A DNA stretch of 59,089 bases, taken from positions 1-59,089 of the forward strand of contig JBKPAK010000097.1 in the NCBI GenBank assembly GCA_046726415.1, given 5' to 3'. Below the pieces are notes generated by a model. The model was not told the DNA's origin and made no database searches. It was given only the letters and a program-made list of their open reading frames with translations. The position numbers and the translations under genes are program-made. This DNA comes from Candidatus Methylomirabilota bacterium. Lineage in GTDB: Bacteria; Methylomirabilota; Methylomirabilia; Rokubacteriales; CSP1-6. Shown here one piece after another: positions 37,348 through 44,046 of this stretch (position 1 is its first letter; each line of letters begins with the position of its first letter).

Positions 37348-38929
37348 TCACCGCGCCCGCTCCCGCTCGTGCTCATCGTCACCCAGCCGCCAGACCAGGA
37401 CTCTCCGCTTCCGGTCGTCCTCATGCTCCTGCCCGCGTACCCGGACGTCACGGCCCGGCGCGCCAGCAAGGTCGTCGGTCCGGAACGCGGTGAGCTCTCG
37501 GCCGGTGTCCACGACCGCATGGCGATGCCCAGCGCGATCACGAGCGAAGCCCACGAGGCGACCTCGGTGGATCGCGCCCTCGACCGGTTCCTCGACATTG
37601 AGCGGTCGACCCTTGCGTCGAGGGACCGTCGTAAGAGTGGGCAACCGTGCGGGCTCGGGCACGCGAGCTGGCCGCGCTCCGTCACGGTCACCGGCCCGCT
37701 CGATCGGCTGGAGCGCTTGAACACGGGTCTCGATCATCACCCGGCCTCCCTTCTCGATAGCCTCGGCGCGGAGCGTGACGACGTCGCCGATACGGAGCTG
37801 GCCCAGGCCGCGGGCCCGCTGGACACTTGGTGGCTGCGGTATGTAATGCAGGCGGTCCCGGGTCTCGAGCAGCAAGTACCGCTTGTCTCGGAGTTCGTCC
37901 GCCAGGCCTGTACCCACCAGCCGGCCCGTGATGACCGTGCCGGGCTCGATCTCGGTGACCGCCACCGGGACATGGGGGTCGCGCAGCCGTGCCTGATGCC
38001 GCGCCCGCGTCTTGATGATGTCGCCGTCAATCTGCGCCTGTCGCAGCGTCGTCTCGAGAGGCGGCGAGAGTCGCCACGTTCGCGTCCACACCTTCTCCGC
38101 CAGCCCGAGACCTTCGAGCACCTGAAGGCGTCGCAGCTCCTGCCTCCGGAACTCGCGTGACGCCGGCGACTTCGGCAACCGGCCGTCGATCGTAACGAGG
38201 CCTCGCGTTCCCGCGTGACGGACCAGGGCACGGTCGATCTCGGTGAAGTGGATACGCTCGATGGACTGGCCTCGGGCCTGCACGATCTCGCGCTCCGAGC
38301 GATACCCGAGCGCCTGGGTCGCCAGGTCCTGACTGCGCCGGCGGATCCCCTGCCGCAGGTAGTCGGGATGGATCCGGAGGCCCTGCCCGCAAGCGTCCCG
38401 ACCGCGGACCAGAAGGTGCACGTGGGGGTTGTCGATGTTGTAGTGGTCGATGGCCACCCACTCGAGGCGCGTTCCGAGATCCCGCTCCATGTGGGAGACC
38501 AGCGCCCGCGTGTGCGCCTTGAGGTCGAGGCGCTCGGCGTGCTCGGGGGAGACGATGAACTTCCACAGGCGCTCGTCGTCCGCGCGCTGCCAGCTCCGCA
38601 GGGTCGCCGGCAGATCGAGACCGTCCTGCTCAGCACTGAAGCCGTGGCCTTTGCCGCCCTCGCGCTGCCCCCTCGCGCGCCAGGTATGTCCCGTGCGCCG
38701 CCCACGAGGCGCCCCTGCCGTTCCTGGAGTAGGACGCTTTCACCGTGCTCGGCTGCCAGCGCGGATCGACGCCACCGAGGAACGCGCGGCCGCGGCCGAG
38801 GCGGCTCCCACGATGATGAGCACCCCACCGACTGCGGTGTGCTCGTCGTGGCAAGGGCGGCCGACGACGCCGATGGCGTGAAGCCAGCCGCGCGGCCAGC
38901 TCGAGGTCATCACTCGGGCGTACCATCAC
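37348..38929 (-). pseudogene. VirD2-like/DUF3363 MOBP relaxase, frameshift near 38667
   Basis: HGTYLAREG, WKFIVSPE, MERDLGTRLEWVAIDHYNIDNPHVHLLVRG. Confidence 0.85.
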
Positions 38930-38969
38930 GCGCCGGCCCCGGTGTCGGCGGCTCGCCTGCGGAGCGGCA

Positions 38970-39566
38970 TCAGTCGATCGTCCATACCGGGCGCGCGACC
39001 GCCCACACCTGCGACGTCGAGATCGGTCCGAGGTATCTGCTGTCCCAGCTGTTCGGTACGCGGGTGCTGACGACCCACAGCTCGTCGGCTCCGACGACGT
39101 ACCGCCCCCACGCCACGTGCGGGAGCGCGCGTCCGAGACTGTCGCGGGCCGCAGTAGAGCTTCCGGGAAGAGGCTGACCGTTGACGGTCACCGCCTCGGG
39201 TCCGATGTCGACCACATCGCCTGTGATGGCGACGACGGGCTTCAGTACGGGCTGCACGCCGCCCGCGCACGGCCCGGGGCCGAGGTAGCCTCGTGGGCGT
39301 GCAAGCGCAGCAGCCTGGGCGTCCACACATGCCACGACCCACTCGCCCGGCCCCGGCGGTCCGGCGACCGTTCGGTACAGCCCGCGCGGCGCGCTTGCGG
39401 AGAGATTCACGTGCAGCCCAAGCGTGAGGAGCACGACGAGGAGGACGCCGGCCACATGCAGGGCGACGCCAGCCCGAGCTGCGCTCTGGCTGCGCGCCGA
39501 GCGACACGGGACATGCAGCGCGCGTGCGGGCCAGCCACGAAGTACCCCGGAAAGGGCGTGCTTCAC
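38970..39566 (-). CDS. traF: Conjugative S26 peptidase TraF-like
   Basis: NLSASAPRGLY, LKPVVAITGD, DSLGRAL, SWDSRYLGP. Confidence 0.85.
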   Translation of the reverse strand: MKHALSGVLRGWPARALHVPCRSARSQSAARAGVALHVAGVLLVVLLTLGLHVNLSASAPRGLYRTVAGPPGPGEWVVACVDAQAAALARPRGYLGPGPCAGGVQPVLKPVVAITGDVVDIGPEAVTVNGQPLPGSSTAARDSLGRALPHVAWGRYVVGADELWVVSTRVPNSWDSRYLGPISTSQVWAVARPVWTID

Positions 39567-39667
39567 GACTTCCCCAGACGCGACGCAGACTTGCGTCGTG
39601 CGTGAGGTGAGTTTTTATCTTGCTGTACCATCCGCTTCTTCCTCCCCGCTTCTCTCCCCGGCCCGCG

Positions 39668-39892
39668 CTAACTCCTCATCGGTCCCGTCCCGCGCCCGCG
39701 CCAAGTCTGGACCTCACGGTCGGTCTCGACGAATCGCTGGAGCATCTGCACGACAAGCGACCAGACGTCGATCGGCTGGCCGATCGTCTCGTGGTAGTAG
39801 CTCGTATACGCGGTCAGCGCCGCGTGAAGCTCTCCGGGCACTCGCCCCTTCAGCGATGCCTCCGGGTACGTCTTCACAGGCTTCAGTTTCAT
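39668..39892 (-). CDS. DUF2274 family protein
   Basis: LHAALTAY..YY...LVVQMLQRFVETDR pattern; lies directly after trbI. Confidence 0.72.
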   Translation of the reverse strand: MKLKPVKTYPEASLKGRVPGELHAALTAYTSYYHETIGQPIDVWSLVVQMLQRFVETDREVQTWRGRGTGPMRS

Positions 39893-39990: not shown

Positions 39991-40064
39991 GTCACTTCTC
40001 GGGGCATGAGGTCGTTCGACATCTGGCCCAGCTCCTGTCCCACCACGGCGCCCACGACGTCGTC

Positions 40065-41550
40065 ATGTCCGAAGAGTCCCGGCTCGGGCGCGAGCAAATC
40101 GAGACGGGCTACGCGCTGAAACAGATCACCGATGCGGGTGTTCGCGTCTTCTTCTACCTCGAAGACCGCGAGCGCACGCTCGACAGCGCGCTCGAGAAGG
40201 TGATGCTATCGCTTACGAACTTCGCCGCCGAGATGGAGCGGGAGCGCGCCCGACTACGAACGCGCGACGCGATGCAGCGCAAAGCCGCGCGCGGCCACGT
40301 CGCCGGCGGCAAGGTGTACGGCTACCGTAACGTCGAGATTACGCGCAACGCTTCCGATGGGCGCGCCGTCCGCGATCACGTCAGCCGTGAGGTCGTGTGG
40401 GAGGAGACGGCCGTCGTCCGCCGGATCTTTGAGGAGGTAGTCCAGGGCCGCGGCTTCGCGCGGATCGCGAAGGGTCTGAATGCTGACGGGATCCCCTCGC
40501 CGCGTGCGGGCGCCGGGTGGGCGATGACCGGCGTGCGCGAACTCGTCTTCCGCGACCTCTACCGCGGCCGCATCGTGTGGGGGAAGACCCGCTGGGTCGA
40601 TCGCGGCGGGACGAAGGTGAAGCAGGATCGGCCGGAGTCGGAGTGGCTCGTGGTGGAGGCGCCGCCGCTGCGGATCGTCGATGACGAGCTCTGGGCTGCT
40701 GCGCACGCCCGGCTCGATCGCACGCGCCAGACCTACGTGCTCCGCAGCGGCGGGCGCCTCTACGGCCGCCCGGAGTCGGGCATCGAGTCGACGTACCTGC
40801 TCACGGGGTTCCTCGAGTGCGACGTCTGCCACGGCGGCATGTCAGCCTCGTGGCGCTCCGGCCAGCGCGGGGAGCGCCGCGCCTACTACCGGTGCAACAC
40901 CCACCGCGCCAGACCGGGCATGTGCGAGAACGCCCTCACGATCCCGACCAGGGCGCTCGAGACGGCGATCCTCCGCACGCTCCGCGACGACGTGCTGACA
41001 GCCGACGTCCTCGAGGAGGTTGTGGCGCGCGCAATCGCCTTGTTCCGCGGGCTGCCCGACGAGCTGGAGCTCCGGCGTGAGCGGCTCACCCGCGAGGCGC
41101 AGCGGCTGAAGGGACGAGGCCGCGCGGCTGACGGACGCTGTCCGGATGGGCGGTCCGCTTGCGTCACTCGTGGACGCGCTCCGCGCGACCGAAGAACGCC
41201 GCCGGGGCATCCTGGCGCAACTGGAGCACGTCGATGGCCTGGGCCGAGGTCACGAGCTGCTCGTCGGCGCCGGCGACGCGCTTAGGCGCGAAATCCGAGC
41301 CCGCCTCGCGGAGTGGGCAGAGCTGGTGGGCCGCCACCCGGTGCAGGCGCGACAGGTGCTTCGGAAACTGCTCATCAATCGTGTAACTATGCGGCCGGTG
41401 GTCAACGATGACGGGCGCTAGTATGAATACGCCGGCCGCGCCTCCTACGGCAAGCTGCTGGCCGGCGTGCTCCGTGTACAAACGTTGGTGCCCCCGGAGA
41501 GGTTCGCTGCCTTCGCGCAGCACCCTATCGATGTTCTGCTCGTGGCCTAG
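40065..41550 (+). pseudogene. Large serine recombinase; N-terminus lost, frameshift near 41112, in-frame TAG 41419
   Basis: SEESRLGR, YGY, YLLTGFLECDVCHG and YYRC Zn ribbon, coiled coil; no YxRxS catalytic start upstream. Confidence 0.87.
41486..41506 (-). other. att core matching a tRNA 3' end
   Basis: Reverse complement CGAAC-CTCTC-CGGGGGC-A-CCA fits tRNA positions 56-76. Confidence 0.65.
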
Positions 41551-41778: not shown

Positions 41779-41994
41779 ATGTCGCGAGAATCGTCCGCCC
41801 CGAGTGTCATTCCCACCCCAGCGGCGTTACGCGCCGCTGTCGCCCGAGACGGCAGGCCCATCTACATCTTGGCCGCCGAGGCCCGGATTCACCCTGCGGT
41901 GGTCGGCAAAATGCTGGCCGGCCACGTCCCGATCACGGCCGACCGGGCGGCGCGAATCCTCCGCGCTGTTCGCGATCCCGACGCCGGTGCGTGA
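41779..41994 (+). CDS. Small Cro-like HTH protein
   Basis: IYILAAEARIHPAVVGKMLAG pattern; GGAGG upstream; TGATG coupling. Confidence 0.6.
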   Translation: MSRESSAPSVIPTPAALRAAVARDGRPIYILAAEARIHPAVVGKMLAGHVPITADRAARILRAVRDPDAGA

Positions 41995-42179
41995 TGGCGC
42001 ACGCGGCTGCGTCATCCGAGAGTCCGCCTGCCAAGGCCGGGGCGATCATCCCGGACGACGGCCTGATCGTCGCGCTCCTCGCTGAACTGTTGGTCCGCGC
42101 CTACGTTCGGCGGCAGCGAGCGGCGCGCGGTGCGCCCAGTGCCGAGCCTAGGTGCGGGGGGTGTGTATGGCCGGCATAA
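41994..42179 (+). CDS. Small hypothetical protein
   Basis: Translationally coupled between HTH and dnaB-like genes. Confidence 0.4.
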   Translation: MAHAAASSESPPAKAGAIIPDDGLIVALLAELLVRAYVRRQRAARGAPSAEPRCGGCVWPA

Positions 42180-43465
42180 TGGGCGCGCGGATTGCTCCCT
42201 ATAACCTCGATGCCGAGCAGGCGGTGCTGGGCTGCGCTCCGCTCGAGAGGCGGGACGCGATGCCTCGGCTTGCCCGGCTCTCCTCCGAGGATTTCTACAC
42301 GGAGGCGCACCGCGACGTTTTCCGAGCCATGCGACGGCTCTACGAAGCGGGTGGTGATCTGGATCTGCTCACCGTCACAGAGGAGCTGCGGCGAGCCGAT
42401 CAGCTCGTGTTTGTCGGCGGGCCGGCCGCGCTGGAGCTTCTGCTCGAGCAGGCCAGCATTGCCGCCTATCTCAGCTCGTACGCGGCGATCGTCAAGAAGA
42501 TGGCCGCGCTCCGCGAGTTGATCCAGGCGGCGACCCAGATCATCACCCAGGCCTTCGACGCGAAGGACGACGTGCAGGCCATCATCACAAACGCGACTGA
42601 CACCCTGGCCAGGATCGGCGCGGAGGCGGATCTGGAGGGCGACGGCCGGGCGGCCGACGAACCGATCGGCGACGTGCTCAAGCGCGTCGTGGCCACCGTC
42701 GACCGGGCCGAGGGGCCCACCATCTCCACGCCCCACAATAGGCTAAATGAAATCCTGGGCGGCGGCTGGCGCCCAGGGGAGCTCGTCTACGTGGGCGCCT
42801 CCCCTGGGGGCGGAAAGACTGCCTTTGCCCTGGGGCTGGCCGGCTACGCTGCACAGAAGGACCAGCACGTCGCCATCGTCTCGGCGGAGATGTCGAACGA
42901 TGCGCTGGTCGAGCGGATGTTGGCGAACCGCGCGCGGGTGCCGGCCGATCGCTTCCGCGCGGCGACGGTCCAGCCCGAGGACTTCTCAAAGTTCCTGCGG
43001 ATCGCGTCGCAGATCGCAGGTCTACCCATCACGCTTAACGACCAGGCCACTACGCTTGGAGGCGTCCAGCGTGTCGTCCGTCGGCATCGGCCAGCCCTGG
43101 TCGTCATCGATTACATGCAGCTCATGCGGGGACCAAAGGGCGCGGACCGGCGCCTCGAGCTGGACGCGGTATCTCAGGGCCTCAAGCTCATGGCCAAGCG
43201 CTACCGCTGCGTGGTGTTGGCTCTCTCGCAGATCACCCTCGTCCCCAACGGGAAGGGCGGTTTCCATCGGCCGACCATGCACTCGTTGAAGGAGTCCCGG
43301 GGGCTGACCGCGGATGCCGACACTGTGCTCCTGCTCTGGTACCCCGACCCCGAGCGACCGAACGATCTCGAGCTGATCGTCGACAAGGGCCGCAATCACC
43401 CCACGGGCATCGTCGATCTGGTGTTCGACCGGCCGCATATGACCTTCCAGGAGACCGGCGCGTGA
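42167..43465 (+). CDS. DnaB-like replicative helicase (element-borne)
   Basis: PYNLDAEQAVLG, EDFY, GASPGGGKT, SAEMS, VIDYMQL, LSQ, DAD, KGRN. Confidence 0.9.
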   Translation: MAGIMGARIAPYNLDAEQAVLGCAPLERRDAMPRLARLSSEDFYTEAHRDVFRAMRRLYEAGGDLDLLTVTEELRRADQLVFVGGPAALELLLEQASIAAYLSSYAAIVKKMAALRELIQAATQIITQAFDAKDDVQAIITNATDTLARIGAEADLEGDGRAADEPIGDVLKRVVATVDRAEGPTISTPHNRLNEILGGGWRPGELVYVGASPGGGKTAFALGLAGYAAQKDQHVAIVSAEMSNDALVERMLANRARVPADRFRAATVQPEDFSKFLRIASQIAGLPITLNDQATTLGGVQRVVRRHRPALVVIDYMQLMRGPKGADRRLELDAVSQGLKLMAKRYRCVVLALSQITLVPNGKGGFHRPTMHSLKESRGLTADADTVLLLWYPDPERPNDLELIVDKGRNHPTGIVDLVFDRPHMTFQETGA

Positions 43466-44046
43466 GCTGGTTCGCCAAGATTGACGCCAACTGGCCGAGC
43501 CACCCTAAAGCCATCAAGGCGGGTTCGAAAGGGCGGGATCTCTACATCGCCGGGCTCTGCTATTGCCGGCGCCATCTGACGGACGGGTTCATCCCGCGCG
43601 AGGCGCTCTCGACACTCCAGCCGGGACTGAAAAGTCCGTCAGCTGTCGCTACGCTGCTCGTACGTCTGCACCTGTGGGAGCAGCGTACTGACGGGTTCGT
43701 GATACACGATTACCTCGATTGGAACGATTCCGCTGCGGACATCAAAGCCACGCAAGAGGCCGCGAAGAAAAGGAAACGCGAGTGGTGGCACCGTCACCTA
43801 GACGCCGTACCGAACGCGTCTAGGAACGCGTCTAGTACAACGTCCTCGACGTTCCCTACTCCTAATAAAGAAACAGCGGCTTCGCCTCGGGGGCAACCCG
43901 GAACCCAAGTGGATGACCGCCGAGGAGAAGCGGGCCATGCGCCAACAGATCGCCGACGAGCTGGGGCTGCCTTCCGACCACTTCATGCGGGCCGGCGGGA
44001 ACCCAATTTCGGCACCCGGCCGCACATGACGACGGGGGAGGGGTAG
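43462..44046 (+). CDS. Phage-type replication initiator-like protein
   Basis: WFAKIDANWPSHPK, LTDGFIP, IHDYLDWN; GTGA coupling to helicase; 3' end uncertain. Confidence 0.6.
   Translation: MSWFAKIDANWPSHPKAIKAGSKGRDLYIAGLCYCRRHLTDGFIPREALSTLQPGLKSPSAVATLLVRLHLWEQRTDGFVIHDYLDWNDSAADIKATQEAAKKRKREWWHRHLDAVPNASRNASSTTSSTFPTPNKETAASPRGQPGTQVDDRRGEAGHAPTDRRRAGAAFRPLHAGRREPNFGTRPHMTTGEG
43812..43835 (+). repeat. Iteron-like 12-bp tandem repeat inside Rep-like gene
   Basis: GAACGCGTCTAG x2; inverted partial CTAGACGC at 43798. Confidence 0.6.

Follow-up and report, generated by a model that had tools for sequence, protein, structure and literature searches.

A decayed large serine recombinase gene carrying a tRNA-derived attachment core, and a predicted exchange of the C-terminus upon integration in its family

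The window analysed here is the entire 59-kb contig JBKPAK010000097.1 (59,089 nucleotides) from a Candidatus Methylomirabilota bacterium of the Rokubacteriales, in a 7.6-Mb assembly of 352 contigs. At positions 40059-41550 it carries a recombinase gene in which a short sequence resembling the 3' end of a tRNA lies in frame, near the stop codon. A reading made from the letters of the sequence (hereafter, the original prediction) had taken this sequence for a tRNA-derived attachment (att) core and proposed that integration into a tRNA gene would replace a degradation-tag-like tail encoded beyond it. The gene, its core and its tail are compared here with those of relatives in other genomes, in metagenomes and on viral contigs.

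The recombinase gene and its attachment core

The open reading frame (ORF) at 40065-41285 matches the Pfam families Resolvase (profile positions 73-144 of 145), Recombinase (PF07508, E = 7e-23) and then the zinc beta-ribbon Zn_ribbon_recom (PF13408, E = 1e-10), the last two above the curated cut-offs. By this combination of domains the recombinase is a large serine recombinase (LSR), which narrows the class given in the original prediction and leaves its recombinase frame as described. The features of the gene are listed below, attR denoting the junction at the far end of an integrated element.

40059..41113, plus strand: LSR pseudogene, first reading frame, with the C-terminal part of the resolvase domain and the Recombinase and zinc-ribbon domains (Pfam; tblastn).
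41110..41418, plus strand: the same gene in the +1 frame, coiled-coil and C-terminal region (consecutive parts of homologues are split over the two frames).
41419..41421, plus strand: in-frame TAG, at the position of the aromatic residue (W, Y or F) of the GR[WYF]YE motif in relatives.
41422..41485, plus strand: last conserved recombinase residues ahead of the core, YEYAGRASYGKLLAGVLRVQT, aligning with the family pattern Y.F.G...YG.LLAG.
41486..41497, plus strand: att core TGGTGCCCCCGG, antisense to the terminal 12 nt (CCGGGGGCACCA) at the 3' end of tRNA-Arg(CCT).
41498..41506, plus strand: remainder of the predicted 21-nt core, matching the tRNA at 5 of 9 positions; homologous to the attR tail-coding DNA of a relative and not contiguous tRNA.
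41497..41550, plus strand: probable free-state tail ERFAAFAQHPIDVLLVA with its TAG stop, homologous to the tail stored in genome G003 and to that of protein P0037.

In tblastn comparisons with the proteins P0004, P0007 and P0037, homology begins at 40059, corresponding to about residue 78-80 of these proteins, and the window copy is without the first ~78 residues, including the catalytic serine; intact relatives begin with ...IYARKST.... There is a frameshift at about 41110-41116, beyond which the C-terminal region (41110..41418) is 57% identical to P0001, and the TAG at 41419-41421 follows. With its N-terminus lost, its frame shifted and a nonsense codon in its path, this copy is dead: it is an LSR by descent and not in function, having neither the catalytic-serine domain nor an uninterrupted frame. 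The damage that the original prediction had noticed thus consists of three separate lesions.

On the plus strand, 41486-41506 reads TGGTGCCCCCGGAGAGGTTCG, with the reverse complement CGAACCTCTCCGGGGGCACCA; its codons TTG GTG CCC CCG GAG AGG TTC encode LVPPERF in the frame of the recombinase C-terminus, which continues AAFAQHPIDVLLVA up to the stop codon TAG at 41548-41550. Sequence, frame and tail are exactly as had been predicted, and the core does lie in frame within the 3' end of the gene; its length proved to be 12 contiguous nucleotides of tRNA, not 21. Compared with tRNA-Arg(CCT) of same-genus genomes, the 21-mer agrees at 17 of 21 positions in register, with contiguous identity only over the last 12 nt, where TGGTGCCCCCGG matches the tRNA 3' end at 12 of 12 positions; these represent the acceptor 3' strand, the discriminator and CCA. 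A host tRNA ending in CTCTCCGGGGGCACCA, which the original prediction called for, was found neither in the own genome nor among the tRNA-Arg(CCT) genes of the relatives searched, the target ending instead in ...CACCCCGGGGGCACCA. Within its own assembly the 21-mer is unique even at 3 mismatches and matches no tRNA, the best of the 46 tRNA 3' ends differing from it at 4 of 18 positions. The literal 21-nt tRNA core was rejected on this ground in favour of the 12-nt end of tRNA-Arg(CCT).

With at most one mismatch allowed, the window should contain the 12-mer 0.66 times by chance, so its occurrence alone is within expectation, and the significance of the core derives from the fact that the same 12-mer occupies the same codons in homologous recombinases that abut tRNA-Arg(CCT). 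The identical 12-mer is found in relatives at the junction of integrase and tRNA (attL), at attR sites and at empty tRNA sites. In relatives ending in ...VPPG and a stop codon, the DNA runs from TGGTGCCCCCGG into GGTGA[AC]TCGAACACCC, which is antisense tRNA-Arg(CCT), whereas in the window TGGTGCCCCCGG is followed by AGAGGTTCGCTG. The earlier statement that no tRNA body follows holds: ARAGORN detects no tRNA in the whole window, and over the 39 positions that follow the 21-mer, agreement with the tRNA in register is limited to 6. No remarkable dyad symmetry surrounds the core (at most 10 of 22 pairs). The crossover would lie at or near the GG at 41497-41498, either within the core or at its right edge.

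The presumptive target is strongly conserved, tRNA-Arg(CCT) being identical at 77 of 77 positions in two same-genus and five same-family genomes (with a match in 20 of the 26 genomes searched), and most of these sites are empty of recombinase. The own assembly has no intact copy: a 5' half at C114:35800-35837 extends through the anticodon loop and then gives way to unrelated DNA, and of the 3' part there is a degenerate fragment on a different contig (C32:14140-14170, locus L144). The split looks like the work of another integrative element with its crossover in the anticodon loop, or like an assembly break; the unrelated DNA contains a small ORF that, by eye, we take to resemble an excisionase-type helix-turn-helix (HTH) protein. 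An Rfam search for a group I intron that might account for the split gene came back empty. In relatives, extra tRNA-Arg(CCT) 3' fragments of 45-52 nt lie beside the full gene (for instance G023:C60, G027:C32 and G012:C27); since these exceed the LSR cores in length, this tRNA appears to be a hot spot for further elements as well, which probably encode tyrosine integrases.

Integrated relatives and the exchange of the tail

When the domain part of the LSR was used as query, a word-indexed search returned 2,459 proteins at E <= 1e-20. A profile search gave 14,012 cluster representatives (E <= 1e-30), other LSRs included. Among the best 120 of the 2,459, whose C-termini were inspected, three classes can be recognized: proteins ending exactly in ...[LMV]VPPG, proteins ending in peptides that represent a tRNA read backwards (...SPTGFEPV.., ..NGIRTRV.., ..RDSNP..) and proteins with longer, unrelated tails. 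The difference between tRNA-adjacent and free homologues that the original prediction had anticipated is thus apparent, the former having tRNA-encoded ends and the latter non-tRNA tails. Isolated phages yielded no close relative, the best protein match being only 31% identical.

At the DNA level, 86 loci were scanned with ARAGORN and BLAST, comprising 80 genome loci and those 6 of 13 metagenome loci that contain the C-terminus. The end of the LSR ORF overlaps a complete antisense tRNA in 53 of them (9 Arg-CCT, 34 Glu-TTC, 2 Glu-CTC and 8 Ala-CGC). VPPG or VAPG directly precedes the stop in every Arg-CCT copy that is read in the usual frame, and the tRNA-encoded ends of integrated copies further include G, GFEPVLPA, GQGS and PNGI. 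At 13 loci a short core of 13-23 nt (recognized at the protein level only in one case) is followed by non-tRNA sequence, which is the state of the window. The other loci comprise 8 in which the match stops short of the C-terminus, 3 in which the ORF runs off the locus end, 3 at a contig end inside tRNA-like sequence, 4 with a tRNA fragment of 37-46 nt only and 2 without a recognizable core. In the four fragment cases (L019, L044, L074 and L076) the integrase end is followed by 37-46 nt of tRNA-Glu and then by unrelated DNA, and the position of the break near the anticodon region suggests that a second element was later inserted into the same tRNA. The genome of the window itself has an intact tRNA-Glu(CTC) at C190:36663-36926 (L003), into which a C-terminal remnant of about 60 residues of the same recombinase family runs antisense from the opposite strand (...VWWPQRDSNPRF...). 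Upstream, this remnant turns into unrelated sequence (...LENLALRHQL...), which we take to resemble the N-terminus of a transposase.

With attP, the attachment site borne by the element, placed within the integrase gene, the tail displaced on integration should be found at the opposite end of the element, preceded by another core. Such a core was sought in the genomes of 15 integrated copies, on the contig of the integrase. In five, a second core lies upstream on the same strand, 8.6-17.2 kb away, and continues in frame into a short ORF end:

G003, 11 kb upstream, same strand: MVPP, then EGLARLAQQPIEILIAA and stop.
G001, 8.6 kb upstream, same strand: LVPP, then AGSGPRYSRPIRRLVALRRAA and stop (final residues ...LVALRRAA).
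Nitrospira moscoviensis NSP M-1, 17.2 kb upstream, same strand: VVSPTGF, then KDFCNAAFGAWAIPFQGVVQAA and stop (final residues ...WAIPFQGVVQAA).
G033, 9.8 kb upstream, same strand: VASPTG, then KHPVAAAFWLGGPFVAA and stop (final residues ...GGPFVAA).
G036, 16.7 kb upstream, same strand: GGGQ, then PLCPSLAKAVSFKITGVAVAI and stop (final residues ...ITGVAVAI).

The window tail ERFAAFAQHPIDVLLVA is homologous to the tail EGLARLAQQPIEILIAA stored at attR in G003 and aligns, through its stop codon, with the tail end of the full-length relative P0037. Because of this homology to an attR-stored tail, body, core and cognate tail stand together in the window as they would in an unintegrated element, and it is very probable that the copy represents the attP state, as the original prediction had it. 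The predicted exchange itself is reflected in relatives by ...VPPG ends at attL and a window-homologous tail at attR, and we hold with high confidence that this family has its attP within the integrase gene and exchanges the C-terminal tail on integration.

The attL/attR pairs suggest the following course of recombination between attP and the tRNA gene as attB, and of excision, by the family integrases. The element-borne attP would carry the last 12-23 nt of a tRNA (in the window, 12 nt of tRNA-Arg(CCT)); recombination would rebuild the tRNA from element DNA and leave the integrase reading antisense into the tRNA body, while the original tail of 17-25 codons would move to attR, to be rejoined upon excision. 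In the window, integration into the tRNA-Arg(CCT) of the genus would convert ...LVPP-ERFAAFAQHPIDVLLVA into ...LVPPG. The exchange is limited to the 17-25 codons after the last conserved domain. When the contigs of four public runs were compared with the N. moscoviensis element, no excision or circle joint was found, contigs being a format that drops rare forms; loose contig ends at the tRNA 3' end occur in two metagenomes, for which other strains or other occupants of the site are possible sources.

The elements that carry the family are small, 8.6-17 kb, and of several kinds; the hosts of the clade include Methylomirabilota, Acidobacteriota, Nitrospirota and beyond, and its carriers phages, satellite-like islands and other small elements. 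The 8.6-kb tRNA-Arg(CCT) element of a Rokubacteria metagenome-assembled genome (MAG) (L126, G001:C5:750300-769000) encodes an HK97-type capsid, a small terminase, a Cro/CI-type HTH protein and little else, a gene set resembling that of capsid-forming phage satellites; a third copy of the core, without a short tail, lies 14.9 kb upstream at this locus. The 17.2-kb tRNA-Glu element of the cultured nitrite oxidiser N. moscoviensis (locus L233, 3581000-3600500, with the element itself at about 3,582,089-3,599,302 of the complete genome) contains a DnaD-like/DnaB-like replication pair, a second integrase (658 aa, tyrosine), a lambda tail-I-like ORF and a dCTP-deaminase-like gene next to a ResIII helicase, the last two possibly forming a defence pair. 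Viral contigs of 37-46 kb carry the LSR gene internally.

In the window, the following stretch lies beyond the recombinase gene:

41779..44046, plus strand: possible cargo of the same element (a weak assignment), in which the tail is directly followed by a small ORF, then by a helicase resembling DnaB (42152-43465; Pfam) and an ORF of 194 aa.

DnaB-like helicases also occur in the elements of relatives (L028 and N. moscoviensis), and against all fetched loci the cargo genes gave a single weak match, that of the DnaB-like protein to L028 at 31%, and nothing closer. Immediately upstream of the truncated recombinase, the minus strand (37348-39892) carries what is left of a conjugative element, with a relaxase-like DUF3363 ORF, a TraF-type S26 peptidase and DUF2274. 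Conjugation remnants before the LSR and cargo ORFs after it suggest that the mobile DNA here is a mosaic of remnants of about 7 kb; the rest of the window consists of housekeeping genes. Synteny of the window flanks in five relatives was uninformative, the left flank being a multi-copy cyclase family and the right one barely conserved.

The tail and its possible function

The window tail ends in -LLVA, that is in -VA, and the host tmRNA tag in -LAA. The endings -AA or -VA occur, in the integrase frame, at 6 of the 13 attP-like junctions in genomes and in 7 of 8 tRNA-less copies on viral contigs (34 viral loci, of which 13 had a match reaching the C-terminal region; 2 of these lie at tRNA-Glu, 1 has a tRNA-antisense end and 2 ran off), and -AA terminates 4 of the 5 tails stored at attR. 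Among representatives clustered at 50% identity, of which 58 of 147 aligned at the core column, 13 of 19 non-tRNA tails of 10-45 aa end in this way versus 0 of 35 tRNA-antisense tails (22 of all 147 do so). The background frequency is 3.1% for coding-like ORFs of the same loci (14 of 449) and 1.7% for random short tails (165 of 9,832); the nominal binomial p of about 1e-6 for 6 of 13 is overstated, as some of the loci are related. Apart from their ends, the free-state tails diverge in sequence and have in common an aromatic residue, a hydrophobic-P/Q-hydrophobic stretch, often a glycine, and a small non-polar terminus.

These endings raise the possibility, to which we give slightly less than half of our confidence, that the tail acts as an ssrA-like degron. 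A free element would then make a short-lived, tagged integrase and an integrated one a stable, tail-less enzyme. The reading as a whole, of a decayed LSR in the attP state, from a tail-swapping family, with a tail resembling an ssrA-like tag, is the one towards which we lean, if mildly. More tentative is its extension to the clade, according to which a large group of LSRs might use attP inside their own gene as a sensor of the integration state, with the tail as an ssrA-like degron; establishment would hinge on the activity of host proteases, any enzyme left over would be removed, and insertion into the tRNA would delete the degron, leaving a stable integrase poised for excision dependent on a recombination directionality factor.

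Several observations weigh against the favoured reading. At 7 of the 13 attP-like junctions in genomes the integrase frame does not end in -AA or -VA, the stored tails of the tRNA-Ala subfamily end in -AI or -AV, and the window tail itself has -VA rather than -AA. The pattern aromatic-x-hydrophobic-P/Q-hydrophobic ... G ... R-x-A-A is wider than the last two residues, and conservation extending beyond the terminus is as compatible with a structural or regulatory module as with a degron. The loci counted lack phylogenetic independence (L012 and L022 share one contig, L039 and L056 one MAG). The search for a second core on the integrase contig was negative in 10 of 15 genomes, and the own assembly contains no attR partner, no intact tRNA-Arg(CCT), no intact copy of the integrase and no other integrase-linked core, so that the origin of a chromosomal copy in the attP state is unexplained by that reading.

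Most likely, the window copy is what remains of either a tandem array or a free element that was captured. On one Acidobacteriota contig, two full-length copies in the attP state (L012 and L022) lie about 12.8 kb apart in the same orientation, with related but diverged tails (...RLRRAA and ...GLRRVA); they probably form a tandem array, in which attP-like chromosomal junctions can arise. At the hybrid junctions L060, L119, L028 and L067 the integrase stops early and a typical tail lies in another frame past the same core (...VVRAA, ...TFVA, ...LALAA and ...FQGFVEAD, each before a stop codon), as expected if neighbouring elements of an array use different frames across the tRNA end. Several of the 7 non-fitting junctions look hybrid or decayed in this manner, with the tail in another frame, although choosing the frame post hoc inflates the agreement.

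An alternative that we consider rather unlikely, if still worth weighing seriously, accepts the tail swap and takes the tail for a module of activity or directionality, as proposed for IntP/IntX of phage Mx8, instead of stability: the tail would alter what the integrase recombines or how it meets a directionality factor. Its conservation over about 12-20 residues, not at the terminus alone, accords with such a role, as does the conservation between two genomes of tRNA-Ala tails that lack the typical ending; in Nitrospira, the tRNA-Ala(CGC) tails of L216 (G036) and L229 (G040) share the pattern P[LM].[CY]PSL....F.I.G.AVA[IV] up to the stop. The precedent is Mx8 int, which gains a new 3' end on integration and has its specificity changed, not its activity abolished (PMC6070905). 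Across divergent tails, however, the terminal Ala and the [AV]A dipeptide are the most invariant part, as in ssrA-like tags (PMC8092301).

It seems improbable that attP overlaps the gene end as a neutral consequence of its position, with no state-dependent function for the tail. Tail sequences do diverge widely among subfamilies, integrated copies persist with the arbitrary tRNA-encoded ends given above, and the majority of genome junctions do not have the typical ending; set against this are the 20- to 40-fold enrichment of -AA/-VA over background in three separate samples, the conservation of tails between distant genomes (window and G003, L216 and L229, L017 and L086) and the fact that all 13 translated tail-bearing locus ORFs (6 genome, 7 viral) are intact and full-length. 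That the window represents an old integrated junction with a decayed tRNA, or a chance resemblance of the 21-mer, is very improbable and largely refuted, for although the gene is a pseudogene without a partner site in its assembly and the 12-mer is not rare by itself, the 51 nt past the core encode, in frame, a tail homologous to an attR-stored tail and to that of a full-length relative, no similarity to the tRNA body is left over and relatives have the same 12-mer at the same codons.

The favoured reading, a serine integrase with a degradation-tag-like terminus, offers a testable model for the dosing of unidirectional integrases. The insertion of large DNA relies mainly on serine integrases as tools, and conserved tRNA 3' ends as attB would offer ready-made landing sites in many uncultured lineages. 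For annotation, ends such as ...GFEP..., ...VPPG and ...NGIRT... in 'recombinase family proteins' represent antisense read-through into a tRNA and mark element boundaries to the base.

Relation to known systems

The canonical serine integrases (SPbeta SprA, A118/LI, Bxb1, phiC31, TP901-1) share with the window family the layout of Resolvase, Recombinase and zinc ribbon/coiled coil. They are known to target protein-coding genes or intergenic sites, with an attP outside the int gene. Among solved structures no match covers the tail, the best, SPbeta SprA (E = 2e-23), reaching only profile position 522 of 563. In Mycobacterium abscessus all Int-S sites are in ORFs (PMC8092301), and the Islander paper of 2015 states that serine integrases do not target tRNA genes (PMC4383910). 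A literature search, to which subscription journals were mostly closed, found no serine integrases that target tRNA genes or have attP in their own ORF. Contrary to the 2015 statement, the family described here routinely targets tRNAs for Arg, Glu and Ala.

Mx8 (intP to intX) resembles the window family in having attP inside the integrase gene and a C-terminus that changes on integration; its Int is a tyrosine recombinase, whereas the window family consists of large serine recombinases. In Mx8 about 112 residues are reportedly exchanged, compared with 17-25 here. With attP within the integrase coding sequence, integration gives a recombinant gene with a new 3' end, for which a regulatory role has been proposed, and the passages of the same review that deal with Mx8 report no degradation-tag-like terminus (PMC6070905), whereas the tail in the window family may be such a tag.

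The integrases of both Mx8 and SSV extend across attP (PMC4383910), and in archaeal integrases of the SSV type a tRNA fragment inside the integrase ORF serves as the recombination site (PMC7253208; PMC4383910). Integration of the 'suicidal' SSV1 type splits the gene in two, whereas in the window family the exchange affects no more than the terminal codons and leaves the catalytic and DNA-binding domains together in a single ORF; the SSV-type enzymes, moreover, are archaeal tyrosine recombinases.

In the integration-dependent immunity of mycobacteriophages, the viral form of the repressor is destroyed by way of an ssrA-like tag and the integrase also has a proteolysis signal (PMC4557955), the tags being described as 'XXXAA-C-term' on rep and int genes (PMC8092301). 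In such BPs-type phages (clusters G/I/N/P; M. abscessus prophages), as here, an ORF contains attP and loses a C-terminal extension on integration, and the free and integrated C-termini differ; there the switched gene is the immunity repressor, the integrase being a tyrosine recombinase whose own tag integration does not remove, whereas here it would be the serine integrase itself. Proteolysis has been demonstrated experimentally in the BPs type and is predicted from sequence for the window family. According to the sources cited, C-terminal switches through an attP inside a gene are thus known for Mx8, for SSV-type integrases and for mycobacteriophage repressors, all three settings that use tyrosine recombinases. 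A gene that rewrites its own C-terminus on integration would be a compact sensor of its state, a principle known from Mx8 Int and the mycobacteriophage repressors and, in the family to which the window copy belongs, probably embodied in a large serine recombinase.

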